Notes: generated by a model from the letters alone, not told the origin. Shown: positions 342-32,198, counted from the stretch's first letter. The stretch: DNA of 64,000 nt from Paraspadella gotoi (GCA_051294375.1 CM119263.1:14090414-14154413); one strand, 5' to 3'. A program made the numbers and translations.

Positions 342-1590
342 ATGTCTCAACATTCGTCCACTGCTAAATCGAATAAATCTAAAAATAAATCGACTAAAAA
401 AGTCAAGCCCCGTAAACTAAAGCTTGACCCATCTGCGTGGGGAGACGAAAAACCGGTGGATTTTATCCTTTCGGGACTAGAGGAAGATATCATCGTTGGC
501 AACGGAAACGAGACGATTCCAAAGACGTCAATATCCACTATCCGAGCCCCAAACGGCTCAAATCCCCCTCCCTCTTCAACACGGAAACCGTCGCTACCGA
601 CGTCGACTTTTGTCGATAAACAGGCGCAAATCTTCGTCGAGGGAAAGAGACGGTTCGTCGCCAAATCCGCCCAACATGTGGCCGAGGAACAGGAAAGAAT
701 GAGATTACAGCGTCGTTTTGATTACGACCCGTCGAGTAACGATTCACGAGGAAACGTGGATTCTCGTGATTTCCGATCCACGAATCTTATCCAAATCGCT
801 ATCCACTTTCAGACATTTTTTCAAAGATTTGCCCACTTGACGCATGGCGTCCTTGCTGGCTTCTGCACTTGGCAGTGCGTCGTCGTTTACTTACTTTATC
901 GAGCCGGCGAGAATGTTATTGCCAACGGTGGGCTCGACTTTGTCTTTGGGCTCTACGCACCTTTAGCGATGCCAGTTAACAGCGCATTGGCTTTTTTGTT
1001 AACTGTGGCGTTTCTCTCCGCGCTGGATGATTTGGACATCGCCTCGTCCGACTCGCGAGCCGTAATCTGCCCCCAATTCGTCACGTTATATTCTGTCTTG
1101 CGAGCTTTTTTAATGCCGGTTCTTATTGTTTCCTTCGTCATCAACAACGTACTCGTTCAAAAAGAAAGCACAATCAGGTGATTGATTTATAATTATTTTA
1201 TTGAATTGATTGATTGATTGATTGGTTTTAGCGAATTGACGCATTGATTAGAGGGATTGCTTAATAGATTTATCCAGTGTTTTACAGTATGTATGTATGT
1301 GAACGATTGAATAACTTTTAGTGTTTTATCATTTCCATGATTTTTCTTTTTACAGCAACTTAGGAATTCCCGGCCTGAACATGAGTAGCGGTTGGAACAC
1401 GACCCAGACAACCCTACGGCGCGATCTCGCCATATCGTGGTTAAGCCTTAACATGGCCCGATCCATCGCGGCACTTTTGAGTTGGTGCCTCGTGGTTGTG
1501 GCGCGTCGCGAAGGTGGCGTTGGGGACGCCCAGATTTTGACATTGACGCGGAGAAAGGCGGATCTGTTGGGGGAGGGAAGGGGTGGTTAA
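342..1590 (+). CDS. TMEM237: Transmembrane protein 237 (transition-zone/Joubert protein), 2 exons (342-1177, 1356-1590)
   Basis: QIFVEGKRRF...FQRFAHLTHGVLAGFCTWQCVVVY...FLLTVAFLSALD and C-terminal WLSLNMARSIAALLSWCLV follow the TMEM237 four-TM pattern. GT..AG intron 1178-1355 is phase-compatible. Confidence 0.85.
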
Positions 1591-1922
1591 TTACTAGGAT
1601 TCGTTGAAAGATATAATAAATGTTGTTCATTTAAATGTTCACTTAATAAATTAATTGCAGAAAGTAAAAGTAAAAAAAAGACAATCAAAAAACCACAAAT
1701 TCTTCTCGAAACGATTTCTTCTTTACACTCTCAAGCCGAAGATTTAACAAGTGAGAAATTAAATTAAATTAATTTCAATGTAGTAATTAAAAAGCGTATT
1801 TATACTAAAATCACAAGAAACTAAAAATGTAAAATTTCAGGTAATTCATTGTTTTTGAGCACTCGTCCATCTCCACGGTCGAAACAACTTCACGGATAGC
1901 CGCCACAACAAACCTCTTGACC

Positions 1923-4534
1923 ATGTCACGCGCGGCCTCAGCCCACTCTTCGGGAAATTCGTCTGATGAAGCGACGACTTCTCGAGCCGACGCACTGGGC
2001 GGTACTACCGAGGCCAAAGGATCCCGCGCAGCGAGTTCTGTTGGAAAAAAGTCGAAAAAAAGGGATAAAGAGGCAAAGAAGGTAAGAATTTTTGAGACGT
2101 TCTACCGAACTTTTTAGTGACCTTTTAAATTTCAATCCTAATTCCAAAATGGTGATTTTGTTGGGAGAATCTGAAAGAGAAATAACTAATCTATTTCAAA
2201 ACTTTTCTATTCTTTTGCGTATTTTTGTCATATACTCAGACAAATGTAATTATTCTTGGTTGTTCGTAGTTGTCTTTTTTTGGCTCTCTGTCTAGAAAAG
2301 GAGCAAATGTACATATTATTGCACTCATCATTCGTCTCGTCCTGTCTTTTCAGAGTTTTTGTAAATTCGCTGTAGCAATAGCATGGTAAGGTAATTAGTA
2401 ACACAATATTAAGAATACAAATTAGATGTTGGTTTTCATTGAAATTTCTCTGTTTTATTGCAAAAAATATATGTAAAAGATTATGAGGTGTTTGATTAAA
2501 AACTATTTTGAATAATTTCCTTTTACTTTTTAGGAACTTCAACGAGCTTTGGCAAATGCAAAGATTTGGGAAACAAGGTTGGACGTTTGCGAAAGGTCTC
2601 GGCTAGAGTACAGAACAACGGCAAAGAGGTGATTGTGTGTATAATAAATATGATTATCAGTGGCAAAAATTTTGCGAATAATAATAAAAAAGCTAACATT
2701 ATGTAAACTATAATTTAAATATTTGTACTCTCATAATTTTTTACCCGCGCTTGAATCTCGCTCCCTTCCTCTTTCCGGCAGACTGGTTATGGAGAATGAG
2801 GAGTTACGAGGTCAAATGAAACAGACGGAACACGATACCATTGACGTCATTACTTACCTTAAAAAGGAGGACCAGGACAAAGACGAACAAATATTCAAGC
2901 TCCAGCAGGTACACGCCGCCGAAACTCACATTATTTCATTTTAAAGTATAAGATGTATAATATGAATAACAAGTGCATTTGAAGTAATTTTTTTGTCATT
3001 GGTAATAAATGAGAAATCAAATAATATAAAACTTTCGACAAGGAAATGAAACGCGTGCGCCTGGACGCAAAGCGCGATAAAGCTGAGTTGATAGACTCAT
3101 GCAACCAAAAGATCCTTCGTCTGGAAGAGGAATTGGATCGGAAGTCGCAGGAGTTGGACGTAATGAAGGGAGAGTTGAAGCTGGTCAAGGAGTTCCGAAG
3201 AAAAAGGGCGGCCATGCAGAAAGAGCTCGACGAGATCAAGGTGTGATTAACCTAACTATTTCTGAACAAGAATTGAGGACTGATTGTTCGAACGATCGCT
3301 CCAGGACGCATTCGACACGACCACCAAAGAACACAAGTCTCGTATTCATCGAATGGAGCAGAAGTTTTTCGAGGAGAAAATGCGGCTGCAGCAGGAGGCG
3401 AATCAAAAAATCGCCGAGCTGGCGGAACGCGCTCACAGCGAGGCAATAAAAAACCTCGACGAAACCACAAAAGACGTCTATAAGGGTGAATAACTATTAA
3501 CTAAATATATAGACTAATTTATGAAGAACAGATTTTTGTTCTGATGCAAAAAATTTATTTTTTTTCTTCTGATTGACGGCAGAAAACGTTCGGGCTAACG
3601 AAGCTCTGAGCTACCACATCACTAAAGGTGACGAACTCGATAAATTGAAATCTGCTCTTCTCGAAGAAAACCAGACTTTGAGGGAGGAGAAGGAGATTCA
3701 CAATAAGCTCATCGAAGATCGGGTCAAGCAGGCCAAACAAGACAGGGACACGATTAAGGTGATTAAGATGTCACGAACAAAATATCAAAACGAATAAAGA
3801 AAGGCTCTCGGCAATGAATCAATATGAATTACCGAAGTTGGAAAAATTTGGGTAAATCTCGAAAAAAATCCTTTTTAGGCGTTGCGTGAAAACGTAGAAA
3901 CGTTGGAGCGATCGCTTAATCTCATGGTGCTCGAGTTTGACCGGGACCGCCAAACGTCCTTGGCGGAGGCAGAAAGAAAGATGAAGCTGCAGGGACAAGA
4001 ATGTGAAAGACTTAAGACCCTTCTATCCATTAAGGGGGAGGAGCTTCAACAGGTTGATCCCCCTTTTCTCTGGTTATCAATAAAAGGGCATTTCTATAGG
4101 CTTAAATGTATATATTCTTTGTACTTTTAGATCAAAAGATTAGGAAGAAGGATTCTGCATCAAAGATCCGAAGTTGAAACTTTTTTTCATACCGGTAAAT
4201 ATTTTGAATTATCCAGCTTTGTTAAATAATCAATTGAATAATCATTAATTAATCAATCAATCAATCAGCTTTGGAGGAAGTCCGTCGAGAGATAAAAGCA
4301 AACCAGGCAGTTTATGTTCGAGAGTCTCAACGCATTTACACAACCCGGATGAGAGAAGCGGCGCTTGGGCGCGACTCCTTTCCGCCTGTGAGAACATTTA
4401 CCAAAGGGAACGCCATGACCAGCACCAATACAGTCTTTAAGGATCTGGAGGGTGCAGATGACTTCGATTTAGCAAAGAAAGGTGAATGAAAGTGCAAAGA
4501 AAAGTTTAAGGAAGCCTAAGAAAAAAAAGGAAAA

Positions 4535-4587
<53 letters not shown>

Positions 4588-5266
4588 CAAAAGAAAAAAA
4601 GAAAAAAAGAAAAAAATAAGTAGTAATTTGTAAAAACAAACACAAAAACAAACAAACTTTAAACCAGGTTCGTCTTCGGTAGACGTAGCTGAAATGACTT
4701 GGGAGCAAAAGGAGCGCGTGCTTCGTGCTCTCTTCGCGATGATGAACAGCTCAACAAAGAAACGAAAAACTGCAAGCGAAGATTTCGGCGCTTCGACGTT
4801 GCGTCCGACGCCAGCGTTCCTTGAAGCCACAACGGGGCGACGCCCCATCCCGATCATTGCTGACCCGACGCGGCTGGCAATTGAACCGGCGTCGGCAAGC
4901 GCTTCTACCGACGTCCTATTCGGTGATATTCAGCAAAGCGTCACGTCAAACTTTAGGTTAATATAATTAAAGCTGGCGAGATGCACGAGAGCATTTAAAA
5001 TTCTTTGAATTTGATGATTTTTATTTTTCAGCGATGGAACCACGCCGCGTATTTCCGACGGAACAGCGCGTTTGGAGGCATCTGGTAATGCAGGCGCCAA
5101 CCTCTCGATCTCTGAGACCGGTGTCGGCGTTTTGTCAACGAAGGATGCTGGGCTCTCGAGTGTTTTTCCAACGTCGTTGCCGAAGGCTCTCCCAGAAATT
5201 CAAGTGCCGACCTTGACGACAGAACAAAATCTGGCGATGGCGGCCGGTGGAGAGGCTAATGGCTAA
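1923..5266 (+). CDS. BBOF1: Basal body orientation factor 1 (CCDC176), multi-exon coiled-coil protein
   Basis: Exon from 2534 reads ELQRALANAKIWETRLDVCERSRLEYR; later exons give DVITYLKKEDQDKDEQI, RMEQKFFEEKMRL, HQRSEVETFF and MTWEQKERVLRALFAMMN. GT-AG introns traced. Confidence 0.9.
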
Positions 5267-5422: not shown

Positions 5423-8323
5423 ATGTCGAACAACGGTCGAGGATTTCTCGGGTTTGAGACAGGACATCGACCCGATGAAGTGGAACGACTGGCAAAGAGA
5501 TTTTCCCATGGGGTAAAGACGAATAAGATTCCGCATGCGGACTACGAGAAACTGGAAACAATGCTGTTGGAAAAAAAGGCAAGGCGAAGAAGAATAAATG
5601 CAAGATAAAAAAGATAATAATTTTTAGGATTAATTGAAAAATTGAACCTGTTTTTAAAAATGGCTAAAACCTTAAAAATAAAACTTCAATAATGTTACCC
5701 AAGATGGCAGCAAACCAGAGCGCGCTCAAATTCAAGAAGATGAAGCAGGCCTCTCGTCAGAATCGCGGGTCGGGGTTGCTGCACCAGCACCGGGCCATTT
5801 GGAAGGACGCCTCGCGTCGAATGGCGGAGGAACGAGGGCGCACGGAACGAGATCTAAGGGCGTTTCTTAAGATTGCATGCGACCAAGACTCAGATTCTAA
5901 AATCATTTTCGATTCAATGGATCGAGGAATCGCCGCTTTGGGCGAGGAGCTGAAGGTTGGCAACGTCATAGTAATTGTTTTGTTCTTAATTAGGATTTAA
6001 ATCATCAAGTTGAAATTTTTTAGGTGTTCCGCGATGAGATTGTGTCGCCGCTGTGGTTGCTTCGGGATGAAGCGAAGTCGTGGTCGAAACGCACGGCGGC
6101 TTTGGATGCCAGGGGCGTGGAGGAAATGAAGCCCGAGCGTTTGGGGACTCTTAAGGAAGAGGACGAAGAGGAGGAAAGTGAGCGGAACAAAGAAATCTCG
6201 GTTATTAATGGTGTTAAAACAATAAATTTCTTTTTTTATTTAACTATTCTTTCGTAATTCGCTTCGCAGTTACGGAGGAGGAAAAGCTGTCGTCGTTATT
6301 TTCGTCGTCGTCGAAACGTATTTCGGAAATCTACGATGTCCTCAAAAACGAGGAGGATTCTCTTACTCGTCAACTCCAACGGTTGACCGATGACTTGAAA
6401 GAGGTGAGACAAGATCTCCGCGTTGATTTACTTCCTTCGCTTTTTCAGCCAACGATCCTTTCCAGGTTTTCGATACCGAAGAAATCCGAGAACGGGACAT
6501 CTTGGTCGGATATCCTCTAGAATTAGATCAGTGGTCATGCCCGGCTGAAGAACTCAGGATCGACGCAAGGGAGGAATTCCGCTATATTGGTTTGCTGATT
6601 AGCTTTGTTAGTTTTTTTTTTATTTTTTTTTTTTTTTTTAATTTTTTATTTTTTTAGTCTAATGTCATGTACGATATTTTAATCTTCATTCAGACGAGAT
6701 ATTTATGTCAAAGCTTCGAGAACACGACTCTTACTATGGTGACTTCCGCAAAGCGGCCACCGAATGGTCGGATTCGGATCACGTTACTTTTCTTCTGCTT
6801 CTCGACCAATATCCATCGGGCGTTGCCGAGAACAACGCTGTACTCTTGGCCGACCGCCTGGCGAAGACCTTCCCGGGAAAGACGAGGATGGAAATTGTTA
6901 ATCATCAGAGGTAAGTAGCAACAGATTGCCACCGTGACTCCATGCACATTTTTATCATCTTTATATAATTACATGATTGAAAGCTTGCAGAAACCTGCTA
7001 TTTTATTATCTTGTAAGTGTGATGGAGGCCTTAAACCACCAAAGCCTGTCCAAAGTCAGGGACAAGATAGCTTATTTATTAAATGAATGGATAATTTTTA
7101 TATTGGTTGTACCAATTTCATAATTATTTTCATACTATGTAGCCGGTGCCGAAAAATGGCTCAATATGCGGATAAGAAAGAAAGCATATTCAACGATTGG
7201 AAACGTCACAGAAATGAACTCTTAGAGCAGGTTGTGCTCATTACCTCTTGTTTATTTATTTGTTCCGTTACGGTAATTCTCCATACACCATCGCAGGTTA
7301 AACTGGTATTTGACGAAGCAGTCCAACTGACTGAGCTGGAGAAGGTCGCTGAGGAAGGTCGTCAACTGCAGGACAGAAAATGTCAGGCTTTGATGGAACA
7401 AGTGCAGGAATGGAGAGAGAAAAAAATGGAGGCGTGGCATCTGCAGCAAGTAGCTCTTTCACTGTTTTGGTAGTTATTTTTTTATTAAATTGACTTCCTT
7501 GTTGGTTTTTTATTTACAAAGCAATTGAGCGAGGAGATGCGAAAGCAACGAGAGGAGGCGGCAAAAAAGGATGAAGAAAAGAGGAAGAAAAAGGCGGAAG
7601 AGAATAAACAAAAGATCAACGCGTTTCATCAAGAAAAACAAAAGGAATGTAGTGAATGGATAAAAGATACGCAAAAAAGGTTTGTACCATTTTTGAGGTT
7701 CGTTACCATCGACCGGGTGACCGGGTTAACCTGGGGATGCACCACTCAGGCTGCGAGAACTAGAGTCGGAGTTGACGGCTCAGGCCGAGGTTAACGCGCA
7801 TCGCGTGGAATTTCGCGCCCGAATGTTGGAGGAAAAGAAAGCCGCAGCGCGGCGGCGCGAGGAGGAAGAGGCCGAAGAGCGACGGCGCCGTGAGGCGGCG
7901 CTTGACGCCCTCAGAGCTACCGTTAGCGTCGAAGCAGAAGTCGATCTCACCAGGCTTTACGGGGACACGGCCGCGACAAGAGAAAGATACGGCAAAAACC
8001 CGCAAACATGGTACAAACTAATGACTGTAAAGTATAACTAAAGTAATAATTTTCTATACATGAAAGAAAAATTACAATCTCCTGACAGGGTCAAGGACGA
8101 TGACTACGAAAAAGCCTCTGCCACCCTTCATTGTCACCTATCGGGTCCGCGACTATTTTACACTGACGCTCAGATCCTTTCCGACAAACGCGTGCGCGCG
8201 GAAATGCTTCTCCGCGACGCGGGGGTGCAGTTCGGGGATTACACACGTAATATGATCCGCGGGATAAAACCACCGCAAGAACCCCGTCGAGATCAGCTTC
8301 GTTCCGACATCGATAAAAGTTGA
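5423..8323 (+). CDS. CCDC148: Coiled-coil domain-containing protein 148
   Basis: N-terminal DYEKLETMLLEKK-MAANQSALKFKK...LLHQHRAIW and C-terminal YTDAQILSDKRVRAEMLLRDAG...IKPPQEPRRD match the CCDC148 family. The first intron is GC-AG (5579-5703). Confidence 0.85.
6975..7121 (-). repeat. Dispersed ~150-bp repeat family A (copy in a CCDC148 intron)
   Basis: Reverse complement of 17632-17776; partial copies at ~212-262, ~27643-27664 and ~28341-28440. Confidence 0.8.
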
Positions 8324-8566: not shown

Positions 8567-11500
8567 ATGCTGGTTCCCATTTTTACCCTTAAACTGAACC
8601 ATAAAATCAGCCCCCGCACGGTGGCGGTGGGCAAGTACGACGGGCATAATCCCTGCCTAACGGGGGCAACGACGGCCGGCAAGGTCTTCGTTCACGATCC
8701 ACAAGGGCGCTCGCTGGGAGGCGGAGCCGGGCAAGGCTTGTCCGTCTCAAGACTTGCAAACGCTCCCGGGGAGAACGACCTCAACATGTTGTCGATAAAT
8801 CAAGCCGTTACTGCCGTTGCAACCGGAATTCTTAATCCCGCGGGTAAAAAAATTCGTGTCAATTTATGATGCATAGGTCGCCCTAAAACATATAAAAACC
8901 TACAAGGTACGCCGGGAGAGGCGCTCGTGATTGGCAGTCAAACGAATATCCTCGCTTACGATGTGATGCAAAACTCGGACCTATTCTACAAGGACGTACC
9001 TGACGGAGTTAATGCTTTGCTCGTTGGTTGTCTGGGCAGCATCGAACAACCCATGGCAATCGCAGGAGGAAATTGCTCTTTGCAGGGTTTCGATTATCAG
9101 GTTAAGGAAAAGTCTATATTGGAACAATAAAAGGAGTAATTTTTCTAAAGATTTAAATAAAACTTTTACCCCAGGGCGAAGACGCCTTTTGGACGGTGAC
9201 GGGCGATAACGTTTGCTCTTTGGCATTGAGTGACTTTACGGGGGACGGCCGCTTGGAACTCGTCGTCGGCTCCGAAGACTTTGACATCCGCGTTTTTCGA
9301 GAAGACGAAATCATCGCCGAGATGACAGAGACGGAAGCTATCACATCCCTCTGCGCCATGTGGGGAGCGAGATTCGGATACTCGCTCGCTAACGGCACTG
9401 TCGGAGTCTATGAAAAGAACTCAAGGTAACTATGACTATCAAAAATCTGGAGCTATCGGTTTGTTGAATGTTGATCTATTGGCGCTTTCATTACAAGTGG
9501 AGTTACTCACTGCCGAGTATGCTGTTCACACTTTCAAGAGAACGGTTAAATCAGAAGAATCGGGATTAAGTGGAGATTTTACTGAGGTTTAAATTACAAT
9601 ATATATTAGTAACTTTTAAATATTGTCTTTTCTTCTTTTGCAGGTACTGGCGCATAAAGTCTAAGAACCAACCCGTCTCGATTTTCGCGTTCGACCTTGA
9701 CAACGATGGCGTCCCTGAACTCATCACGGGTTGGTCTTCCGGAAAGATCGACGCACGGAGCGACAGAACTGGGGAAGTTGTGTTTAAAGACAACTTTCCC
9801 AATCCAATCGCCGGTAGTAAATGTTGTTGTTCCTATTTCATTGTATTTTCTTTTCACCTCCTTTCTTTTTTTCTTTTTCTCGTTTTCACCAGGAATTGTG
9901 GAGGGCGACTACCGGTTAGACGGCAACAACGAGTTGATCTGCTGTTCGATCGAGGGTGAGATTCGCGGTTACCTTGCCGCCGCCAAGGAAATTCAAGGAA
10001 ACCTCATGGGCGTCAATTTGGAGCAGGTAATTTAATTGAGAAGTAGACTCGCATTAAAAAAAATTGATTGTTACCGAATACTACTTTAGGACACGGTGCG
10101 TGACCTCTCGAATCGTAAGCAGAACCTCCTCCTTGAACTCCGCAACTACGAAGAAAATCAAAAAGCCGCAGCCATGAGTCCAGGATCCGTTGAGATCGAC
10201 GGCACGCAGCTCGGAATAATTCCCGCCAACACGCAACTGCAGACGGCTATAAATGTCAATTTGGGTAACTATTTTTTGTGGCCTTTTTTTGGGGGGGGGG
10301 GTGACCGGGGGGTGGTCTGGAGAAGTGTTTGAAAACCATAATTTGTTATTCGAGAAAAAAAGTTCCCTTTTATTTTGTTGAATGCATGTTGCAATTTTTG
10401 CATATATCCCTAGGAACAGAAACGCAAAGACCCCACGTCGAATTGACAGTGGCCACGACTAACGAGACTGTCCTGCGCGCGGTACTCATATTCGGCGAAG
10501 GAATTTTTGAGGGGGAATCTCATGTCGTTCACCCAAACATCGCTAACGCCTCCTCTGCGCTCAGAATTCCTATTGTTCCTCCTAAGGTTTTTAAACTTTT
10601 TCTTATCCCAATTTATATTAAATTTTTTGCAATTTTTTTCAGTCTTTTAACAATTTATTGATTGATTGTTTATTTTTCTTTATATTTTAAACATCTCCAG
10701 GACGTTCCAGTTGATCTACATATCAAATCTCTGGTGGGATTCCGTAACAGCACGCAACATCACGTGTTTGAACTCACCCGCCAGCTTCCGCGCTTTTCAA
10801 TGTACGCTCTTTGGAGGCCATCCATTCGTATTCCTTCACTGGAGGCCACTGCTTCAGAAGGCGGCACGCCTGCAGGCGGTGGGAGTGGCCCCCCTGAACC
10901 CAAGGGTAACGTGACTTTCTCCATAAACGAAAGATTGCAGCGTGTCTTATTGTGGGTCAATCAGAACTTTCTCATGGACGAGGATCTCAAGGTTGAGCCA
11001 GGAGGGGCTCTCCAGGCTGTTTTTATTTCCCTGCGAGGCTCTGGGCCACTTTGGATTCGGATGGAAACTAACGGACAGGTTTGTCTCTCTTATAAGTGGC
11101 TCGGAGAAACTTGATTTTTCGAACGTCCTTTACTTTTTGAAGGTGACCGTCAAAACGGACGACATGGATCTCGCCGGAGACGTGGTCAATGCTCTTTCTA
11201 CATTCCTGAATCTAGACGAGCTGCAAGTAAGTACTGCTCTCTGGAGCACCGTGAACCTCCACAAATGCATCTTGCTATGTTGTTCCAGGTGGTGGCCGAT
11301 TTTCCGGCAGAGATGGAGACGCTCCGCGAAGTGCTTGTGAAGGTTGACGATTTCCACTCAGTTCGGCAGAAACTAACAGCGGAGATGGCGGATCACTCCA
11401 ACCTCATCCGCAATCTCGTCGTCCGCGCCGAGGACGCCAGACTTATGGGCGATATGAGGAACATGAAAAAGGGTTATATGGAGCTCTTTGATCTAAATAG

Positions 11501-16366: not shown

Positions 16367-16430
<64 letters not shown>

Positions 16431-16516
16431 GACAGAGAAACCCGCCACACATCTTGGATCGAGTGAGTGAGTGAGTGAGTGAGTGAGTGAGTGAGTGAGT
16501 GAGTGAGTGAGTGAGT

Positions 16517-16558
<42 letters not shown>

Positions 16559-21603: not shown

Positions 21604-21643
<40 letters not shown>

Positions 21644-21745
21644 TTTCATGTGAAAAGAAAGTCACTGTGACGCAGCAAATTGGAAGGACCATTCTTGTTT
21701 CAGCCAATCAGAGTCACGAAAATAAAGAAGATCAAAAAAATTCGT

Positions 21746-21837
<92 letters not shown>

Positions 21838-23190
21838 TTTGATGTGAAAATAAAGTCACTGCCACGCAACAAATTGGAAGGACCATTCTTGTTTGTTTTC
21901 CGGTTTCCCCTTCTCGCAAAAATTACAATTCTTTTGAAGTTAGTAACTCAATTTAAACATTTTTTATCCTCTCATATCTGCAGCGTACCCCGCTGACCAA
22001 ATCGAGGGTTTTGAGAGTCGCGGAGAATCAGCCGCTGACGGCGCCCGCAGCGCAGCAAGCAAAGGCGGCGGCGGTGGCGGCGCGAAGTCACGAAACGATG
22101 CTGCGAAGACAAAGGACGCCAAAGCGACCGCAGGCGGATCAGGGGGGGAAGCGAGAAAGAAGAAGAAAGGTAAAGTAAATCATCCTGTGATTAAAAATGA
22201 ACAATGCGTAAACTGAAATACCTTACTGTTATTTCATCAAGAAATATGTCAACATTCTGTTTTAAATAATCGGTAAATAACAAAGGTTTGAAGATGATTC
22301 GGTAAGGCTAAGCTCATTTTAAAAAAAATTGATTTGATTGTTAAAAAATTACAGGTAAAGATGAAAATAAAAATAAAGGTAAAGGTAAAGATAAAGGTAA
22401 AGATAAAGGTAAAGGTAAAGGTAAAGGTAGCGGTAAAGATAAAGGTAAAGGCAAAGGCAAAAAAAAAGGTAAATTTTGCAGGGGAGGGTAAAACAATTAA
22501 TCTTGTTATTCCTTTTGTTCATTTTGAGCTATTTTGAATTTGATTGGAATGAACCTTTATCTTAAAACTACATTAAACCCGTGAATAAATATCCTTTGAC
22601 TAGGTGATGCTGAAGTTGACCTTTTCTCCATGCCACCGGAAGTGACGGTTGTAGCGCGATTTCATGCCAACCTTCGCGACTTCCTTGACGGTGAGCGGGA
22701 CCTGGAGTTCATTTTCAGTCGAGACGGCGGCAACGAGATCGTGACTAAAGTGGATAAGAAGGACAAGGAAAAGGAGGCTAAGGAGGATAAAGACAAGGAG
22801 CCCAAGGACGCAAAAGGCAAGCATGGCGCAAAGACCGCTTCCAAAAAGGATGAGGAGACTCCAGCCGGCGGCAAAAAGGGCGGAAAAGAGGACAAAGCGC
22901 CAGGATCTAAGGGTGCGGCAGATCGTTCTGGTGGAAAATCCTCTGCAACCACTAAAAGCTCCAAGGGGGACAAAGGCGGGAAGGGCGCTGCAGCTGGCGA
23001 CGGGTCGCCGGATGAGGCGGCGGTAACGAGTGCTCCCCCGCCGCTCGAGTGCCACTTCCGGCTCGGCATGGCACGATGGGCCAAGGCCTCGGATTGGGCG
23101 CCCCCAGTTGTAGAAGAGAAGAAGGCAGCGCCCGTTAAAAGTGCCAAGGGGGGGAGACAGAAAAGCGCTGGTGGAAAGAGTGACGCTTAG
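19845..23190 (+). CDS. LRRC43: Leucine-rich repeat-containing protein 43
   Basis: LETLILTANNL...LPRCLEFLELCANDLS...WPRLLSLDLSHNDLDDL...LLIGNPLSLPPSYRGFVIDVL; Lys/Asp-rich C-terminus ending PPPLECHFRL. The start ATG is tentative. Confidence 0.82.
21600..21895 (+). repeat. (TTTC)n tracts with a tandem ~55-bp duplication in an LRRC43 intron
   Basis: atgtgaaaa.aaagtcactg..acgca.caaattggaaggaccattcttgttt at ~21648 and ~21843. Confidence 0.8.
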
Positions 23191-23625: not shown

Positions 23626-25610
23626 ATGCCATCAACTAAGGAGCAGAGAGAAGAAGCTTGGAAAAATTTGGATATTACTCCGGAGGAAGCAGACAGATTC
23701 ACCCAATGTTTCAAGGCAAAATTTATTATCTTCATAGAAATTTTGTATCGACAGTATGGTTATTATACAAATAAATTATAAAAATTTGTATTTTTTTTTA
23801 CCAATAGGACGAGAACTTTCGTAAGCTTTTTCGTGAGTATGCGGAGGAAATCTCCGACCCTGAAAATAAGGCCAAATACGAAATGGAGATCCGACAGTTG
23901 GAGGCCGATAGGGGCGTAGACTGTCAATTTATCGATCCACATCCAGGGTGAGAGCATCGAGCACATTTTGATTTTGATTTCTTTATCTCTTTTTTTTTTA
24001 ATTTTAAACTTCGATATATTTACTTTCTGTTTCGTTGTTATTGTTGTTGTAGTTGTTTAAGTTGCTTATTTTCTCTCTTTCTTTTTTTCTTTCTATCTTT
24101 CTTTCTTTTGTTGTGGATTTATTTTACTTTCACTTTTTTTATCTCGTTTTTTTCTTTGCATTCTCTTTTTTTTTTTGTAATGATTTTTGTCTTTCCTTTC
24201 TTTCATTTTTTTTTCTTTTTGTTTTCTTTTTTCATTAATTTCCATCTCCATTCCTTATCCAAATCTAGCTACGTTCTGAAAACAGTTATGAACGGCGACC
24301 AAAAAATCTTCATCAACGTCGCGGAGAACGATAAAGTGGGGAAACCTTCGTCGCAGACTGGACAGGGAGCCGACGGCAAACGCGGTTTACAATGGAGCAT
24401 TCCTCATTCTTTAGGTCTATAACTCAAAGGATACTGTACAACGTTTGAGTTTTTTTTTTTTTTTTTTTTCGAAAATAATTGAGCAGAGAGGCTCGTCGCT
24501 CTTTCCTTCATATTGAAATTTCTTCCTTAACTCCAGCTCCTGCACGGGATGATTTTGATAAGAACAAAAAGTTGTGTCAAGTCTATGATGTGGTGTTCCA
24601 CCCGGATACTCTTCGTATGGCTTCCAAGAACCGGGCCTTTCGGCAGATGATTGACTCGACGGCCATGGATTCTGTGGAGGAGAGATTCTCCATCAAACTG
24701 GACCGCGCTAACGTGAAGCAGCCCAAAATGAAATACAAAGGAATGCCGCAGGCGGCCGTCATACGCAAAGCGACGGGGCAAAAACCCAAGGAACTTGATC
24801 CCATTCAAGCTGGAGCGTATCCTTCTAATTGGAAGATGCCCAACGAAGACAAGGGTGAGAAATGAGAAATATTAGTGATATAAGTTACATATTGGGTACA
24901 AGATATTATTGATACACTATTATATTTGGTAGTGAAAATTTTCATTTTAACGGTTTTCAGAAGTGAGAATTCATTTAATGTCATTCAATATTAATAATTT
25001 TATATTCCTTTTTTGTCCAATGCTCAATTTTTTTTTGCTCTGCCCCCTAAGAATCTCCACCCGCATCTTTCTCCCCACCTAAAAATTTTCCGGTCGCCCC
25101 TCCTGAGTTCGCCACCCCTAAGTACCAGTTGATCCACCGAAAAAAGTCTGATATGAAAGACTTCACTTACACCTCCTCGCCGGCAAAGGAGATCTGCTCT
25201 ACTCGCCCCGACGAGCTCGTCGTAGAAGTTGAGCTTCCGTTGCTCAAATCTGCCAACGAGCTCAATGTCGACATCGAGGGAGATTCGCTCTTGCTCAAGA
25301 CCGAGCCTAAAGGTGACTATGAGCTGGGAGTAAAGAATGCGTTATGATTTAAAAACTCAGAAGGAAAATGAGGAAAATTATTTTTTAAAAGAGGATTTGT
25401 AAGTTTTTTCTCAAATTGTTTTTTAAAGCTATATTGTTTTAACTTTTATCCTTAGCTGCGAAGTACAAATTGGAACTGAAGCTTCCCTACTTCGTAAACG
25501 AGGATAACGGCAGCGCCAAGTTCGACAAGCAGCGACGGAAATTGACCCTGGTGCTTCCAGTGCTAGAGAGAGTAGAGAGACCAAACACAACAGAGCAAAC
25601 CGAAGACTGA
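23626..25610 (+). CDS. DNAAF2: Dynein axonemal assembly factor 2 (kintoun; PIH1 + CS domains), 6 exons, ~370 aa
   Basis: LDITPEEADRFTQCFK|DENFRKLFREYAEEISDPENKAKYEMEIRQLEADRG; WSIPHSL; YDVVFHPDTLRMA; RPDELVVEVELPLLKSA; YKLELKLPYFVNEDNGSAKFDK. Confidence 0.9.
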
Positions 25611-25756: not shown

Positions 25757-28700
25757 ATGAACGCAACGCCGAGAAACCAGTCGGCGATGGGCGAGAGCGT
25801 AAACCCGGAAGTGGTTCAAGAGTCGGAATTGGCGGGGAAAGATGGCGTCGAAGCGACCGTGAAAGGCACGGAAGAAGAAGATGATGATGAGAAGTCGTAT
25901 AGTTGGCACTCGATCGATGACGAAGAGGAAGACGGTGAGAACTGTTGAATAGTGATAGTTATCCGATTTCTTGAATACTAAAAAAGATTTGTTGGTGTTA
26001 GACGTCACTGACGAGGAGTTTAACGGCATTCTGACTCCTGTTATGGTCGCGCGCGGCCTGGAACACCTCGCGCGTACGGCTATCGGCGATGCATCTAGCT
26101 TCATTCACCTTAAGCTTCCATCGAAAGGATTAGTCGACATCGGCGTTCTCTTCAAGTACGACCAGCTCCAGCTGGTACATTTAGCTAACAATTCTATCGT
26201 CAGTCTGGAGCCCCTCTCTAACATGCCCCACTTATTGGATATCGACGTGTCCGGAAATTTGCTGGCAGAGGTTCTGGACTTTAAACCTCCCAAGAATCTC
26301 ATGGTCGCCAATTTTTCGCGCAATAAGATCAAGAGAATTCAAGATTTGTCTCAGCATCATTTTCTGCAGGCAAGTAAATTAGAAAAAGACGTATCTAGTT
26401 ATAGTTTTAATTAATGAGGTGAGAGTTTATTTTAAGTTTACAAACAAGGAATTGTATTTTTAAAAAAGGAAATGTTTCGGCTTTAATACAAGTTTGAGCA
26501 AACAATGCCGGATCTGCCCACGATCATTAGCGGAAAGCAGATGATCAGATAACTAATCAATAATTTAATTATTAGTCAATTGATTAATTAATCAATTATT
26601 ACAGTTTGCATTTGCATTTAATACAAAAATAAAAAGCATAATCAAATAGTGAAACAGTTTTTTCATATTTTCAATTTAAACTCATTTCAACTTGGACGAT
26701 TCCATCGAAACTTGATTTCCAGATCAATCGCACACTTTTTTACCCACACTCAAAATTTCAATTAAATCGCCTCATCCACTCATAAGTAATTGCCGTTCAT
26801 TGCTAAGGGGGGGCGGACGGATGGACAGATAGACAGACAGACGACGGACAAACAATTTTTTTTTGACATAATTTATCAGAATTTGATATTAAGACATGAT
26901 CTCAGTGAATGACCGACAAGATTGGGGGGACGGACCGACAAAGGTAATTATAGAGCCGGAATCTTCTGTAAGCAGATCCTGCTAAAAATTCGTTGGTTTT
27001 AAATACGTAGAATTTTCAAACTTGACGAAAAAGAAAAAAATATACAACGATAAAAAATTAAAAAAATAAGTCATATTGCGAACTATCCTTTTTCAGACGT
27101 TAATACTTGACGGTAATGAGATCCGCTTCATCGAGGGGCTTATGTCCTGTCGCCGTCTGGTGGAACTCAGTCTCGCCAACAACAAACTAACCACAATCGA
27201 AAATCTGGATCATCTGCCTATTCATCGCCTGAACCTAAGGGTAATAACTGTTGAGAGATAAAAAAAAACCGCGGTGATTTTCTGTTTTATTAACCCGTAC
27301 GTTTTCTTTTTCTATCACCGTCGCTTCTTGTTTTCTTCTTCTTAACTCTCAAAATATCCCCTCAATCCAGGGAAACCACATCGATGAAATTGAGAACCTT
27401 GAGACGCTGGTAGCGCTGCGCGAGATCGATCTCTCCCACAACCAAATCCGTTCGTTGGATGGGTTGCAAAATCACGATCTTCTCCAAACCATCAACCTGG
27501 AGCAGAACAATGTTGCCGATATGAACGAAATACACCATATCTCATCCTTACCTAATCTGAGGGTCCTCAATCTCCAGGACAACCCCGTGCAGCGACTCAT
27601 GGATTACAGGATGGAAGTCTTGTACCTTATACAAAGGTTGTATATGAAATCAGTACAACCAATATTTATTTATAAGTTAATTACGTCCATTTACATCTAA
27701 GATTTTATTTTTTTTTACACTGAGCGAACATTTTGTAAACAGATTGACGCATTTGGATAAGCAAAGGGCATCGACCCAGGAAAAGGTAGCAGCTTTCAAT
27801 TTGTTCAAACCTCCACCGGAGGTTATTGCCGCTCAGGACCACGCCAGGAACCTCATGTATCAGTTCATGCAACCGTCGAAGGTTGGTGAAATAAAAAAAA
27901 AACTGTGCTCCGTATCTTTTCCCTACTCTGCCCGTTATCTAGGTCCTGGAATCGACGCTGCCCAGCCTGGAAACGCCATTCCCCATGCTCGTCCTTGTCG
28001 GACCAAACGGTTCCGGTTCATTCCAGATGGCTCGACGCCTCGCCAAAGACTTTGGGGAGTATTTCCGGTACGCGCCGCCTCAATCTACTGCGCCACCGCA
28101 GATGTACGAAAACAATCTTGGCGACGACCATCTCGGCTACAGGAACGACGCTGAGTTCGATGCTGATGTTAAAGGAGGAAAGTTTTTAATGACGTGAGTT
28201 TAAGGAAAGGAAGAATAAGGAAACACTATAAGAAAAAATTTGAGGTGCGATAAAGATTACAAGGGAGTGGTCGTTTTATACAATTATGCCACTTCATTGA
28301 TTGGTAAGAGAGAATAAACGAGATTCTGAGAGAGTCTTTATGGAAAGCTTGCAGTGACCTGCTGTGTCATTATCTTGTAAGTCAGGGGCAAGATAGCTAA
28401 TTTTTTTAATGGATGGATAATTTTGTATTGGTTGTATCATTGATTATATAAGTAGATTAACCAATTAGCAAATCACTTGTTCACCTACTTTTACCATATT
28501 TTGCTCTATTGGCTTTTTTTAACAATTTTGTGAGGATTTTGACTTGATTTTATCGCCATTCCAATATTCCCTCGATTCTCCAATCCCCCAAGGTATTCGG
28601 TTCACAACAACCTTTTTGGCCTTCTCTCCTCGTCGCTGGAGGAATGTGCTGTAGAGGGTTTAGCATGTGTCACAGTTATGGAGCTGGAGGGTGTTCTCTC

Positions 28701-30081
28701 GCTTAAGAATTCGCACCATCGCCCGCGTTATGTCCTTCTACTCCCACTGGACCCGTTGGAGCACGCGAGGAGATTGCGCGAGCGAGGATGTATCACTCAG
28801 GAGCAGATCGAATTCGAGCAGGAGCGCGTCGGCTTATATGCGCGCTACAATCGAGAGCGGCCGGGATTTTTTGATCGCGTCCTAGACACAACGAATGTGA
28901 GGGAGGCTTACAAGGAGTTGGGAATCACGGTTATGGAGTATTTAGGTATCGGAAGTGCGCGAGAGGAAAGGGAGGAGTTGGAAGAGGATGAGATATTTAG
29001 AGAAGAGGTGGCAAAAGCGTCCAGAAAAAGTCGTGGCGTAAATCTCTTGGGTAAGTTTATTTTTTAGCTTATATCCATCTGCACGTTTTGTATAAGGGAT
29101 TTATGACGCACGGCTTCAAAATTTCACTAATTAAAGCTGTAGTCAATTGCACCGGTTTATCAAAATCCACAATTAAACCATTAATATATAAATTAAAAAA
29201 ATATAAATTGCACGTTATAAAACAATTACGCACGATTTTTTTACCGCACGGTTTTTTTATTTCACATATTTTACGAACACTCCAGAAAACAAAAAAGGGA
29301 AAACCAATTGTATACACAACACCGTCTTTGTTCATTTGTTTGGGATTCTTACCCGCCGCCGACGTTCCCGCAGGTAGCGCGCTCTCCGACCGTCCTGACG
29401 GAGAGTTCACAATGACGTCTTCCTACCGCGATGCGGCTGCCCTCTACACACCGCTAGACGGCGTCGAAGCTGCTTCTTTCTGGCGCCGAACGGCTTCTGC
29501 CAAAGAAGTTGTCGCTGGAAAACTTGGCTCACCCCACCAGCACCGCTTCAAGGTTCCGGCAACCGCACCGAGCAGACGAGGCGGAAGTGATGATTCATCT
29601 TCGATGTCCGGGGAAAGCGGGGGCAACACAGAACATTCCACCGCCCCAAGGTATTTCTCGACACAGGATAACAGTGTCGACGCCGGAGGGAAGAATCGAC
29701 TCGAAGCGATAACCGGAATTGAATTAGAAACGTCTAACGTCAATAGGTGAGGACTGTGGAACTTATGGAAAGTAACTGAGTAGCAATATGATCAATTAAT
29801 ACAATTATGCTATTTATTGAATCAGAGTTCAGTCTTCTTCGGTCTCTGCATTACCTCCAATAATGAAGAGCTGGGTGAGACAAGGCCCTGCAACCCCATC
29901 AGATACTCCGCGCTTAAATCTTCAGGGATCCTCACTTTCCCGGTCTATTCCGCCCGGGGAAACCAAGAATGAACGCGGCTCTTCCCGTTTCCGTCACAAA
30001 GCTGGCGCTTCAAACGTTTACAAGTCGGCCCCCACGGCTAGATTGGCGCCATCTTCTCTTCCGTCCATCGTTCGTCAATGA
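25757..30081 (+). CDS. LRGUK: Leucine-rich repeat and guanylate kinase domain-containing protein
   Basis: N-terminal LRRs (LQLVHLANNSI, LDFKPPKNL, LILDGNEI), EKVAAFNLFKPPPEVIAAQDH, then a GK-like domain (MLVLVGPNGSG; MELEGVLSLKNSHHRPRYVLLLP). Confidence 0.9.
26488..26985 (+). repeat. Dispersed ~500-700-bp repeat family B (copy in an LRGUK intron)
   Basis: The ends acaagtttgagcaaacaatg..gatct and ccgacaaag..aattatagag recur reverse-complemented at 34435-35170. Confidence 0.75.
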
Positions 30082-30367
30082 ATAAGTTTAATAATAAGTT
30101 TCAGTTTGAACTGTAGCCTATTTCGTCCCTTCTTGTCATTTTTTATTTTTTAAGCGATTGTTTTTCCTTACAAACATATGACTAGCCTTTTTCTTTCTTG
30201 TCAGACGTGAATAAAGCCATTGCCTTGCACTTGTGAACATGCAAAATCAGCGCTTAGCTCTTCTGATGAAGTTTAACGTTTATCATTAAACTTCTCTTCT
30301 GCAGCACCGGTTTCGCCAACTAACTTGATTTTATAAAACCTTTAGTGTTTGAATATTCTAAAAAAAT

Positions 30368-32198
30368 ATGACTGCCTTGGCCGACAAACGAACTCTGATG
30401 CTTGCAAAATCGATCGTAGCCGCCAAAGAATGGCCCGAAAGGCCTCCGAACGAAAGGAAGGTCAAACAAAGAGCCAAGGTATCGCAATGATAAACTTCGA
30501 TTGAAATTTTTTTCCACAAGGAACGGCAATTCCAAGGTGTTACGGCTATTACGACGAAATAATTTTCTCTTCATTTAATCGCTTTTCGATTTGATCTTGT
30601 GACTTGTGACTATTATTATACAAATATTAAAACTAAAACTAAACTAAAAGATATCCTTTGTAGTAAAAACCGCACACACCCAGACTCTCTATATATGTAA
30701 AATGTATTACTTTTTGCTTACAGATAATCTCACAAGAAGAATTGTTGACCACCCATCGGCATCAGGGACTGGCACACCGCAAAACGGCGTTAGAGCGCGA
30801 GCTTCGGACCCGAGGAAAATCGGCCACGACGCGAAAAGACGTCGTCGTAGAATATCCTTCCCCGAGGGTAGAAGAAGAAAGAGGTTGGGAGGGAAGGGAA
30901 GGGAAGAGGAAGAAAGAAAGAAAAGAAAAAAAGAAAGAAAGAAGAAAAGAAAGAAAGAAAGAAAGAAAGAAGAAAGAAAGAAAGAAAGAAAGACAGAAAG
31001 AAAGAAAGAAAAACAAAACAAAACAAAACAAAACAAAACAATCGATAACATGCCTAAATGATGTTAGCGAATCTCGTGGACCGATATCTGTCGGACGTTA
31101 ACAACGACGGAACTGCTACTGAACTGGGGCCGCCGGTAATGGTCATCTCCGAACGGCTTCTCGCCAAACCTGCATGGATTCTACGAACAGAAAAGTTTTG
31201 GTGGTGCGGTGGACCTCACAAGGTACATATGCTTTTTTTTTCTTCGTCGCTAGTTTTAAAAGTGAAACTGCCGTTCCTAAACGGAAAACACAGTGCGCTC
31301 CTCGCCGACGTGCACCTGCACAGCTTCGACCCACCGTTTATGGATTTCATTCTAAAAAGCACGTCTTTGGATCTGCGCCGACTATGTCCCGGGTCAACAT
31401 GTTTGAAAGGCCCTCAGGGACGCCACCATACAAGGTTCCTATAGTCTTGAAAATTTATTATTTATTCAAAATGCAACAATCACCATTCACCAGATTCAAT
31501 AGTGATTCCCGTTTCCACAGCTCGCCCCTCCACCATCGATCGGAACGAGCAGAAGGGACTTAAGTGTTCGTGGACCGGACAAGAACGTCAGTACCAGGTG
31601 AATTATCAGATTAAGCTTGGTTTTAAATTCCACCTAAATTTTTTAGCTTGTTTTAAACCAAATCTTTTATAATTATATTCTTATCCATCTATAGATACTC
31701 TTTATTCTTTAATCTTTATTAGGACCGTTCCTGAAAGCGTCTCAGTGCTTCGTCCGTGGCTAACCGTGAACTTACCTCACGAGGCCACGGGTGTTTCTTC
31801 CAAAGCTTGCCTAGTGTTCCTCCCGTGCCTCACCCATTCGTCCTTCTTCACTGTCGCTCACCCTTTTCAGGTCGACATCTAAAAGATTTATTGTTTGTTT
31901 CCGGGCGAATCCCGTGGTACATGACCATTTTTTCTCCTTCAGTCCCGCGAGACATTGGGATGGCCATTGACCATGACCAATGGCAATTTAATAGAATAAA
32001 AGTTAGCTCTTTTGTTGGAAAGCCCAGGAATAAAATATTATTTGGTTACAGGAACTTCCATTTATCCCGCCACCGCAAGAAGCGGAACAAGATTTGGATT
32101 TTAAAGCTGTTTTGACGCCAGAGATGGCATCGCCGATGCCTGCTGAAGCTGACATAATAACTGTAAGCGCGTCCACCGTTGGACTAACTTCCAGTTGA
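30368..32198 (+). CDS. Unrecognised ~308-aa basic, Pro-rich protein; 8 exons (30368-30478, 30724-30867, 31068-31135, 31254-31434, 31521-31597, 31723-31790, 31871-32001, 32052-32198)
   Basis: Seven GT-AG introns join in compatible phases into one open frame: MTALADKRTLMLAKSIVAAKEWPERPP...HEATGRHLKDLLFVSGRIPWY...ELPFIPPPQE...GLTSS*. AATAAA at ~32365. Confidence 0.62.

Follow-up and report, generated by a model that had tools for sequence, protein, structure and literature searches.

The question raised by this locus is whether a row of closely spaced genes on one strand, many of them serving the cilium, forms a single operon of an animal genome or came to lie side by side in some other way. The window, by which we mean the whole stretch of 64,000 nucleotides of Paraspadella gotoi that was analysed, holds 11 units between positions 342 and 32198, as delimited by exon-chaining models together with the starts and stops implied by the initial annotation. 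The units are arranged head-to-tail, and the claim that they share one strand was confirmed (11/11 on the + strand, and the same direction at 10/10 junctions). The stop-to-ATG gaps of 332, 156, 243, 360, 324, 663, 296, 435, 146 and 286 bp given in the initial annotation were all reproduced. Outside the array, the window has only a spastin-like AAA gene on the - strand and a frizzled gene, separated by about 18 kb as had been noted, and no Pfam match was obtained in that interval. Rfam and tRNA scans of the window gave no match, and gene predictions on the - strand over the cluster were discarded as antisense shadows of the crude codon model. The units are as follows:

342..1590, + strand: gene 1, TMEM237, transition-zone membrane protein (2 exons, 356 aa)
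1923..5266, + strand: gene 2, coiled-coil protein, weakly BBOF1-like (about 10 exons, about 593 aa)
5423..8323, + strand: gene 3, coiled-coil protein, called CCDC148 in the initial annotation (expressed, spliced)
8567..11823, + strand: gene 4, BBS2, BBSome (11 exons, 751 aa)
12184..13170, + strand: gene 5, CFAP299 (DUF4464; 3 exons, 233 aa; mRNA contig reaches 13418)
13495..16828, + strand: gene 6, EFHC1, axonemal microtubule inner protein (12 exons, 648 aa)
17492..19548, + strand: gene 7, BBS5, BBSome (8 exons, 348 aa; one GC-AG intron, 18129-18199)
19845..23190, + strand: gene 8, LRRC43 (about 6 exons, about 697 aa)
23626..25610, + strand: gene 9, DNAAF2/kintoun, dynein arm preassembly (6 exons, about 365 aa)
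25757..30081, + strand: gene 10, LRGUK, LRR plus guanylate-kinase-like (about 10 exons, about 829 aa)
30368..32198, + strand: unit 11, possibly not a gene (no support found)

For eight of these units, namely TMEM237, BBS2, CFAP299, EFHC1, BBS5, LRRC43, DNAAF2 and LRGUK, Pfam or PDB matches bear out the orthology proposed earlier. TMEM237 matched its own Pfam family with 72.1 bits (E 5.4e-20, cut-off 28.1), and six Pfam domains of BBS2 (N, Mid, GAE, pf, hp and CtH) were found in order across 10 ORFs, all above cut-off. The three exons of CFAP299 scored 81.3, 132.7 and 77.2 bits for DUF4464 and cover positions 2-230 of the 230 of the profile. In EFHC1, the Pfam matches to DM10 fall into three groups, corresponding to three DM10 domains, and an EF-hand match was weak (16.4 bits); one exon assigned the protein to EFHC1 and not EFHC2, with E values of 3.7e-55 to 7e-45 for Rib74/EFHC1 in the PDB against 6.6e-30 for the best EFHC2. 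BBS5 matched Pfam BBL5 in five exons or ORFs (32.8-110.7 bits, profile positions 15-286 of 334). The LRR exon of LRRC43 hit PDB entry 9ijj_5C, 'Leucine-rich repeat-containing protein 43', with an E value of 2.7e-26 (9.3e-9 for the runner-up LRR protein), and a relative search with a non-LRR exon of this gene gave nothing. DNAAF2 carries the Pfam domains PIH1 and PIH1_CS, and all named matches (16/16) are kintoun; the protein is short here, as in seven relatives of 352-375 aa that align with it from residue 1 at 23626 through the stop. LRGUK showed Pfam LRR matches and a weak Guanylate_kin match, and was closer to LRGUK in the PDB (9ijj_4P, E 2.2e-22) than to guanylate kinases (2.7e-6).

The calls for the remaining three units fared less well, and the count of at least ten ciliary genes in the initial annotation stands for eight, with BBOF1 weak and with the calls for gene 3 and unit 11 not borne out. 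In the BBOF1-like gene, one exon (3284-3490) matched DUF4515 with 22.1 bits (E 1.6e-4), below the Pfam cut-off of 24.5, while the adjoining exons, scanned singly, scored nothing for this family and PDB searches found no relative; the proposed identity as BBOF1 (CCDC176) has this sub-threshold match in its favour. For gene 3, no relative was found with single exons in the PDB, a word-indexed protein search, the Atlas or a search of 1.84 billion proteins, so that the name CCDC148 found no homology behind it in what is a weak test with exons of 86-103 aa; we know of no Pfam family for CCDC148. Unit 11 had no Pfam family match even at E values up to 10, its coding score was poor, and the gene finder yielded no coherent model. 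The idea that this unit encodes an ODF3/SHIPPO-like repeat was not supported and was abandoned.

RNA evidence was taken from spliced contigs of a public run that cover positions 1-19800; the run was found by a word index, and the splicing of its contigs is the sole reason for taking it as RNA. Statements based on it apply to three of the ten junctions (BBS2-CFAP299, CFAP299-EFHC1 and EFHC1-BBS5), and two stretches without contig cover, 13419-13511 and the repeat at 8399-8453, were left out of the evidence. The modelled introns agree with all RNA joints listed, both for BBS2 and CFAP299 (12/12, ten and two, respectively) and for EFHC1 and BBS5 (15/15, nine and six, respectively), the listed introns of the locus spanning 62-395 nt. 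A further contig lies over 507-1174 in the TMEM237 gene. For gene 3, a spliced contig of 2013 nt with exons 7300-7449, 7522-7677, 7748-8009 and 8088-8317 revealed that our model had missed one real exon (7522-7677). The features at the three junctions are:

11824..12127, + strand: BBS2 3' UTR; the 2515-nt BBS2 contig stops exactly at 12127
12127..12128, + strand: AG of the 3' splice acceptor for the CFAP299 leader; first exon base 12129
13418..13419, + strand: AG of the best-scoring acceptor upstream of EFHC1, a candidate; next base 13420
16829..17491, + strand: EFHC1-BBS5 spacer of 663 bp, wholly within one spliced RNA contig
17488-17489, + strand: candidate acceptor before BBS5, from its acceptor score

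The end of the BBS2 contig at 12127 agrees to the base with depth arithmetic, and the CFAP299 leader joined at this very place comes from outside the window. The CFAP299 contig stops at 13418, at the best acceptor upstream of EFHC1, which is presumably the one in use. Both contig ends thus lie 2 nt before the first base after the best acceptor (12129 and 13420), defined as the top score within 90 nt upstream of the next ATG. At the third junction, a spliced contig of 3715 nt comprises the EFHC1 mRNA, the whole 663-bp spacer and the BBS5 mRNA, with the introns of both genes removed; it includes a piece at 16692-17560, followed by the joint 17560>17956. A contig with two genes does not prove one transcript. 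Overall, same-strand transcripts lie less than 250 bp apart at these junctions (12127 versus 12129; 13418 versus the EFHC1 ATG at 13495; EFHC1-BBS5 bridged), and the earlier claim of co-transcription receives partial RNA support at three of ten junctions. The acceptor score upstream of the 11 ATGs was on average 1.55 compared to 0.35 in controls, a value reached by 5.4% of 2000 random draws, and this enrichment is marginal.

Farther upstream, the gene 3 contig ends at 8317, short of its stop codon, and based on record length, an absent loose end and depth residuals, 30 more letters should lie behind a joint within 8370-8797. A canonical GT..AG intron is impossible at the cut derived in this way, and the joint between gene 3 and the BBS2 region may be a reverse-transcription artefact; a canonical intron at 8319-8481 was considered and ruled out by depth arithmetic. 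The contig depths fall into two groups, with 108.6 for gene 3 and 124.3 for BBS2 versus 524.4 for CFAP299 and 598.2 for EFHC1-BBS5. This step of about five-fold between BBS2 and CFAP299, to be read with the reservation that ranking by contig depth is unreliable, is consistent with an internal promoter or with differing mRNA stability.

The leader on the CFAP299 mRNA consists of the first 42 nt of a contig of 1047 nt (depth 524), present as a loose end before 12129 and the only such end among the five contigs on 7300-13700. It was absent from both strands of the window with up to 3 mismatches allowed, and no copy of its final 10 nt, CTTGTTTAAA, exists in the window (0.49 expected), the chance of this 10-mer being about 4e-6 per position in this composition. 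The leader holds a 13/14 match to the X-box consensus GTHNYYATRRNAAC, according to our own reading. The X-box is the kind of site found near the starts of ciliary genes. Across the window, 14 X-box matches at no more than one mismatch were found compared to 9.9 expected; none was in a spacer, nor was a consensus X-box (RFX) found there, and the idea of RFX promoters in the spacers was dropped. In its last 10 nt the leader is identical to the 3' end of the chaetognath forms SL3.1 and SL3.2, and of 35 chaetognath leaders listed in Table 3 of PMC2481426, 34 terminate in its last 9 nt; SL1 ends in AATTAAA. Because of this identity with the conserved 3' end of published chaetognath leaders, we infer that the 42 nt are a spliced leader. 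The likeness is confined to these last 10 nt; the preceding visible 20 nt are unlike the published leaders, the GGAAGC with which known chaetognath leaders start is lacking, and at 42 nt the leader exceeds the approximately 30 nt to which a 31-mer graph would normally cut back a sequence common to many mRNAs. No leader was found on the BBS2, EFHC1 and BBS5 contigs among the loose ends listed, which is weak evidence as contigs drop rare or short tips. Spliced-leader trans-splicing had not been foreseen in the initial annotation.

Given the RNA contigs at three of the ten junctions, we lean slightly towards a cilium-dedicated array that is transcribed as one or few polycistronic precursors, resolved by chaetognath-type spliced-leader trans-splicing. 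One or a few such precursors would cover the array and would be cut into single mRNAs by trans-splicing, and each upstream mRNA would have its 3' end formed directly at the acceptor of the following gene; the absence of intercistronic DNA would leave no room for a promoter between the genes. By extension, the remaining seven junctions would be arranged in the same way. It is spliced-leader trans-splicing that lends an operon mechanistic plausibility at this locus. Of the 21,072 genes of P. gotoi, 10,197 are trans-spliced and 18% belong to operons, and the species has no operon-specific leader (PMC12460157). The more far-reaching claim of a true organelle operon, in which at least 10 unrelated cilium or sperm-flagellum genes, dispersed across numerous chromosomes in other animals, were gathered on one strand, are co-transcribed and are separated by trans-splicing, and which would be the longest and the only function-dedicated operon in Metazoa, is put forward tentatively, as we judge the balance to tip somewhat against it. 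Such an organelle operon may extend upstream of the window. In mammals, LRGUK, LRRC43, EFHC1, CFAP299, DNAAF2 and BBOF1 count as genes of the sperm flagellum, and the operon genes of chaetognaths are over-represented among germline markers; because of these two points, the unit may, speculatively, serve spermatogenesis.

The main competitor of a polycistronic array is a tight co-regulated cluster in which each gene has its own promoter, located in the 3' UTR or last intron of the preceding gene. CFAP299 would then have swapped a short outron for a spliced leader, as many non-operon genes do in animals with trans-splicing, and the bridged contig would reflect overlapping UTRs. The five-fold depth step from BBS2 to CFAP299 and the lack of a leader on the other contigs among the loose ends listed fit such a cluster; spacers of 146-663 bp could contain compact promoters, a few read-through reads suffice to bridge a contig, and the trans-spliced genes of P. 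gotoi (about half) outnumber the operonic ones (18%; PMC12460157). However, with the BBS2 RNA ending at 12127 and the CFAP299 acceptor at 12128, a CFAP299 promoter must lie inside the BBS2 transcription unit, and the geometry at 13418/13420 is alike. No spacer holds the X-box (RFX) motif, and mere co-regulation does not require all 11 units to be on one strand. We consider separate promoters unlikely, albeit well worth keeping in view.

Much less probable is that the 42-nt leader is an ordinary first exon, located either before the window start, at a distance of more than 12 kb, or in sequence that the assembly lacks, and cis-spliced to CFAP299 across four genes, perhaps as the shared first exon of a long unit. 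Its length beyond the limit of a 31-mer graph, its deviating 5' part and its X-box match would all suit such an exon, but its last 10 nt are those conserved at the end of chaetognath leaders, an intron longer than 12 kb across four expressed same-strand genes would be unusual next to the introns of 62-395 nt here, and the acceptor is exactly where the upstream mRNA stops, as in operons that lack intercistronic DNA. It is hardly credible at all that the ciliary genes became neighbours by chance in a gene-dense genome, or were brought together by an error of the assembly, even though the genome is compact here (11 units per 32 kb) and genes 3 and 11 are without a shown cilium link. With an assumed ciliome share of 5%, based on ciliome lists, our own arithmetic gave a probability of about 1.6e-9 per position for at least 8 ciliary genes among 10 neighbours, or about 3e-5 across about 21,000 positions, and of about 1e-3 for ten same-direction junctions. 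The RNA contigs agree with the exons in every letter and extend across the EFHC1-BBS5 spacer, the only N run of the window (46997-47006) is outside the cluster, and the genes are not paralogues of one another, in agreement with the initial annotation. The function-specific, single-strand cluster of unrelated cilium genes proposed there is real for at least eight genes and is far beyond chance.

Among known systems, chaetognath operons (PMC12460157; the Spadella RPS14-PCNA operon, PMC2481426) are like the array in lying on the same strand with near-zero DNA between mRNA end and acceptor, the genes of the Spadella operon being separated by a very short distance, and in having a leader ending in ...TTGTTTAAA spliced to the downstream gene. 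Unlike the array, the published chaetognath operons are enriched in protein and nitrogen metabolism, have low cell-type specificity and are housekeeping-biased; the longest one published comprises nine genes, of ribosomal, ubiquitin and proteasome function, fewer than the array would have (PMC12460157). BBS2, BBS5 and EFHC1 are absent from the three PDF supplements of PMC12460157. Eight to ten members of the array serve one organelle, which again sets it apart from the chaetognath operons published. Operons without intercistronic regions in Ciona intestinalis, a different phylum with an independent origin, share with the array that the 3' end of the upstream mRNA abuts the downstream trans-splice acceptor. 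The Ciona leader is short (16 nt), and its operons mostly have two genes of mixed functions. C. elegans SL2 operons resemble the proposed array in that polycistronic precursors are resolved by trans-splicing, and their expression is germline-biased; they differ in having intercistronic regions of about 100 nt, a dedicated SL2 leader and up to 8 genes that rarely share one function. Testis-specific gene clusters of Drosophila are similar in that non-paralogous genes of a common tissue or function adjoin, and differ in their mixed orientation, separate promoters and looser functional coherence. By analogy only, bacterial flagellar operons also place on one strand a large number of unrelated genes for the structure and assembly of a single motility organelle, which are transcribed together; bacterial operons have coupled translation of a true polycistronic mRNA, whereas in the array each mRNA would be separated and carry its own leader, and introns are present.

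In the literature searched, we found no description of such a single-strand cluster of at least eight unrelated cilium genes, with or without a promoter per gene. If the shared transcripts are real, the array would be the first animal operon found to serve a single organelle. The operons of animals are commonly regarded as functionally mixed, housekeeping or germline units that are held together by the mechanics of trans-splicing and not by common function. A 10-gene array with members from the BBSome, the transition zone, the inner proteins of the axoneme and the preassembly of dynein would, if true, mean that an operon specific to one function, in the manner of bacteria, can arise by selection in an animal. 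Such an array would also offer a natural experiment on the evolution of gene order when, owing to trans-splicing, genes no longer each require a promoter, on how stoichiometry is set inside such a unit, and on whether one switch can drive ciliogenesis or sperm flagellum assembly.

Synteny was sampled from 153 metagenome stretches that encode a CFAP299 relative, of which 80 were kept and 22 of these 80 exceed 5 kb. A match to any one of seven other cluster proteins was present in 0/80 stretches (E up to 1e-6; only 22 longer than 5 kb), which says only that adjacency of CFAP299 to other cluster genes is probably not widespread. A chaetognath-type leader end before CFAP299 was found neither in the 60 loci scanned nor in the 5' UTRs of 13 loci inspected. 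One stretch, L001, was considered as a possible tricistronic transcript and rejected, as CFAP299 is followed there by an unrelated gene on the opposite strand; the CFAP299 relative that it encodes is like the P. gotoi protein in length (233 aa).

The 139 stop-to-stop open reading frames on the plus strand of positions 1-33000 were scanned against Pfam. The DNA is eukaryotic, with GT-AG introns, and the scan returned the following families.

Pfam matches in the cluster of head-to-tail genes
339-1178, plus strand: TMEM237 (ORF scan)
3284-3490, plus strand: DUF4515, a weak match
8324-11820, plus strand: BBS2, six of six domains
12172-13167, plus strand: DUF4464, i.e. CFAP299
13892-16072, plus strand: DM10, three groups
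17935-19291, plus strand: BBL5, i.e. BBS5
20319-20807, plus strand: leucine-rich repeats (LRR)
23952-25607, plus strand: PIH1 and PIH1_CS
25959-29064, plus strand: LRR and guanylate kinase

None of the 12 large open reading frames tested on the minus strand of this region had a family match. Downstream of the cluster, the window yielded no more than two genes, one spastin-like AAA gene on the minus strand and one frizzled gene on the plus strand, and the interval of about 18 kb between these two gave no family match.

The identities of TMEM237, BBS2, CFAP299 and BBS5 rest on Pfam scores above the cut-off. Relatives were searched with single exons only, which limits the sensitivity of these searches. 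One exon of gene 6 matched sea-urchin Rib74 with an E-value of 3.7e-55 and mammalian EFHC1 with 1.9e-46 to 6.7e-45, compared to 6.6e-30 for the best EFHC2 match; judged by these scores, gene 6 is confirmed as EFHC1 rather than EFHC2. The LRRC43 exon matched PDB entry 9ijj_5C (E 2.7e-26; next LRR protein 9.3e-9), and the LRGUK exon matched 9ijj_4P (E 2.2e-22; guanylate kinases 2.7e-6). The search with DNAAF2 (kintoun) gave 25 matches, 16 of them named and all 16 named kintoun, the best named one being 57% identical. The gene at 23626-25610 is short (about 365 amino acids) and lacks the long C-terminal tail; the named matches measure 661-959 amino acids, and seven unnamed relatives of 352-375 amino acids, 66-75% identical, aligned from the first residue (23626) to the stop. 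For BBOF1, one exon scored 22.1 bits, below the cut-off of 24.5, and the exons of this BBOF1-like gene had no match in PDB. Gene 3, which the initial annotation had named CCDC148, found no relative in the single-exon protein searches, but an RNA contig shows that it is a real gene, expressed and spliced. Gene 11 had neither a Pfam family match nor a coherent gene-finder model. The proposed count of at least ten ciliary genes thus comes down to eight of eleven shown as cilium genes and a tentative BBOF1, with the assignment as CCDC148 and gene 11 left without matches.

Gene models for the eleven units were built with a small, purpose-written exon-chaining gene finder and reproduced exactly the stop-to-ATG spacers read initially (332, 156, 243, 360, 324, 663, 296, 435, 146 and 286 bp). 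The EFHC1 and BBS5 models agreed with the listed RNA joints in 15 of 15 cases and those of BBS2 and CFAP299 in 12 of 12, while the model of gene 3 missed one exon (7522-7677). The BBS5 intron 18129-18199 is of the GC-AG type (donor GCAAGG), with the RNA joint 18124>18196 containing four ambiguous letters.

A share of about 5% ciliary genes was assumed, in line with published ciliome lists. By our own arithmetic with this share, at least eight ciliary genes among ten neighbours would arise by chance with p ~1.6e-9 per position, or ~3e-5 over some 21,000 gene positions, and ten same-direction junctions with a probability of ~1e-3. The genes are not paralogous to each other. The RNA contigs fit the exons without a single deviating letter and extend across one of the spacers, which makes a mis-assembly at this locus unlikely; the sole run of N in the window lies at 46997-47006. 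The cluster of cilium genes is genuine and far beyond chance.

Transcription of the cluster was followed in the public sequencing run X1, in which 59% of the words sampled from 8300-18200 were present and which we take as RNA-derived because its contigs show splicing at GT..AG sites. Only five X1 contigs cover 7300-13700, and a model of four of them at single-base resolution fits the depth in 28 of 30 bins. The first 42 letters of the CFAP299 contig (1047 nt, depth 524.4) match nothing in the window and are joined exactly behind AG 12127-12128, which is preceded by a pyrimidine-rich stretch. The 30 visible letters of this leader were found on neither strand of the window with up to three mismatches, nor were the halves of these 30 letters. 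The BBS2 contig (2515 nt, 3' UTR of 304 nt) stops at 12127, so that no DNA separates the BBS2 RNA from the CFAP299 acceptor. The CFAP299 contig in turn stops at 13418. A scan for the best-scoring acceptor in the 90 nt upstream of the ATG picks 12129 for CFAP299 and AG 13418-13419 for EFHC1; thus, both resolved 3' ends sit at the best acceptor of the next gene. At the following junction, one contig of 3715 nt comprises the EFHC1 mRNA from 13512, the whole 663-bp spacer and the BBS5 mRNA, and both genes are intron-free in it.

Placement of the gene 3 contig (2013 nt) breaks off at 8317, four bases short of the stop codon, which leaves 30 letters over. We placed these in 8370-8797, as none were listed as loose and the only unexplained depth lies there; by this arithmetic, the contig would continue behind a joint in the spacer or the first exon of BBS2. 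A canonical GT..AG intron was ruled out at the cut deduced in this way. One depth-consistent solution joins gene 3 in frame to BBS2 codon 15 at 8609, with 2 nt of microhomology, and the junction may stem from read-through into a chimeric RNA or from an artefact of reverse transcription.

At its 3' end, the leader on CFAP299 reads ...GGGCTTGTTTAAA. According to the available portion of Table 3 in Marletaz et al. 2008 (PMC2481426), every spliced leader form of two chaetognath species except SL1 ends in ...TTGTTTAAA, and SL3.1 and SL3.2 end in CTTGTTTAAA. The final 10 letters of the leader are identical to this end of SL3.1 and SL3.2. The 10-mer occurs nowhere in the window, compared to 0.49 occurrences expected on 128 kb (~4e-6 per position). 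On account of this shared end, we read the leader on CFAP299 as probably a chaetognath-type spliced leader. It points to a chaetognath as the likely source of the DNA, which agrees with the distance between its kintoun and the named kintoun proteins. Ahead of the shared end, the 20 letters of the leader that are visible do not resemble published chaetognath leaders.

The alternative that the leader is a distant, cis-spliced first exon draws on its length, since a graph of 31-mers would be expected to retain less than 42 nt of a sequence common to many mRNAs, and on GTCACCATGGCATC in its visible part, which matches 13 of 14 positions of GTHNYYATRRNAAC, which we take to be the X-box (RFX) consensus. 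Such a motif is unexpected in a spliced leader and may be due to chance, and a motif scan found no X-box in any spacer of the cluster. We consider a distant first exon very improbable. The main rival, according to which promoters lie inside the cluster and trans-splicing does no more than trim outrons, is possible but rather unlikely. It is favoured by the contigs of BBS2, EFHC1 and BBS5, on which no leader was seen, and by the contig depth, which changes five-fold at CFAP299; both observations speak against an operon. The leader at 12129, the abutting ends and the EFHC1-BBS5 bridge lend partial support to the co-transcribed operon proposed by the initial annotation, and we regard the cluster as a plausible, partly supported leader-resolved operon. 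In such an operon, RNA polymerase II would likely read through several or all of the genes, cleavage and polyadenylation of each upstream mRNA would fall exactly on the 3' splice site of the gene that follows, and this gene would then be given its capped leader by trans-splicing. Covering 1-19800, the RNA contigs inform three of the ten junctions, one of them with a leader, and at these three we infer a shared transcript. The predicted acceptors put the first exon bases of the eleven genes at 323, 1851 or 1900, 5371, 8482, 12129, 13420, 17490, 19786, 23608, 25745 and 30305. By extrapolation, the other seven would be resolved alike: each has a pyrimidine-rich AG 2-85 nt from the next ATG, although the acceptor set is only marginally better than control DNA, its mean score being equalled or exceeded in 5.4% of 2000 random draws.

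Trans-splicing and operons are common in this species. The available text of the P. gotoi genome paper (PMC12460157) gives 10,197 of 21,072 genes as trans-spliced and 18% of genes as lying in operons, defined as genes less than 250 bp apart, without an operon-specific leader. Nitrogen and protein metabolism are over-represented among the operon genes described there, whose cell-type specificity is low, and the longest operon comprises nine genes, all housekeeping. This text makes no mention of a ciliary operon, and BBS2, BBS5 and EFHC1 are absent from three supplements of the paper. In the literature searched, which was limited to sources outside subscription, and in part to portions of these, we found neither an animal genomic cluster or operon of cilium genes nor synteny of BBS2, BBS5 and EFHC1. 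Operons are normal in chaetognaths, but function-specific ones have not been reported so far.

Regarding conservation of gene order, 153 metagenome stretches encode a CFAP299 relative, of which 80 were kept (22 longer than 5 kb). None of the 80 matched TMEM237, the BBOF1-like gene, BBS2, EFHC1, BBS5, LRRC43 or LRGUK at E <=1e-6, so, judged by this sample, the adjacency is not a widespread ancestral linkage. One contig of 5.1 kb (L001) carries an intron-less CFAP299 reading frame at 178-879 (233 amino acids, 82% identical over the exon compared). Neither EFHC1 nor BBS2 adjoins it; a gene for a 684-amino-acid cysteine-rich membrane protein lies on the opposite strand at 3008-5062, about 2.1 kb beyond.

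Low-depth (2.4-5) spliced contigs over 13378-15882 were also present in X2, a run from another study with another organism label. Five of these cover CFAP299 and EFHC1 exons with no other letters; therefore, Paraspadella gotoi RNA is present in a sample that carries a different label. Within the frizzled gene, positions 57612-57625 of its first coding exon form a perfect X-box-like palindrome, GTCGCCATAGCAAC, probably by chance. Introns and spacers of the cluster contain long microsatellites (4468-4671, 8399-8453, 16341-16620, 21555-21900 and 30864-31066) of the types (GA)n/(GAGT)n, (CTTT)n, (GAAA)n and (TA)n, at which RNA contigs break. They also contain a short interspersed element of about 148 nt at 6974-7121 (inverted) and 17630-17777, the copies being 92% complementary, with partial copies at 204-262 and 28340-28382. 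RNA depth over this element reached 18,285 and 9,045 per bin, compared to about 100-600 for genes, and dozens of RNA contigs diverge at its ends.
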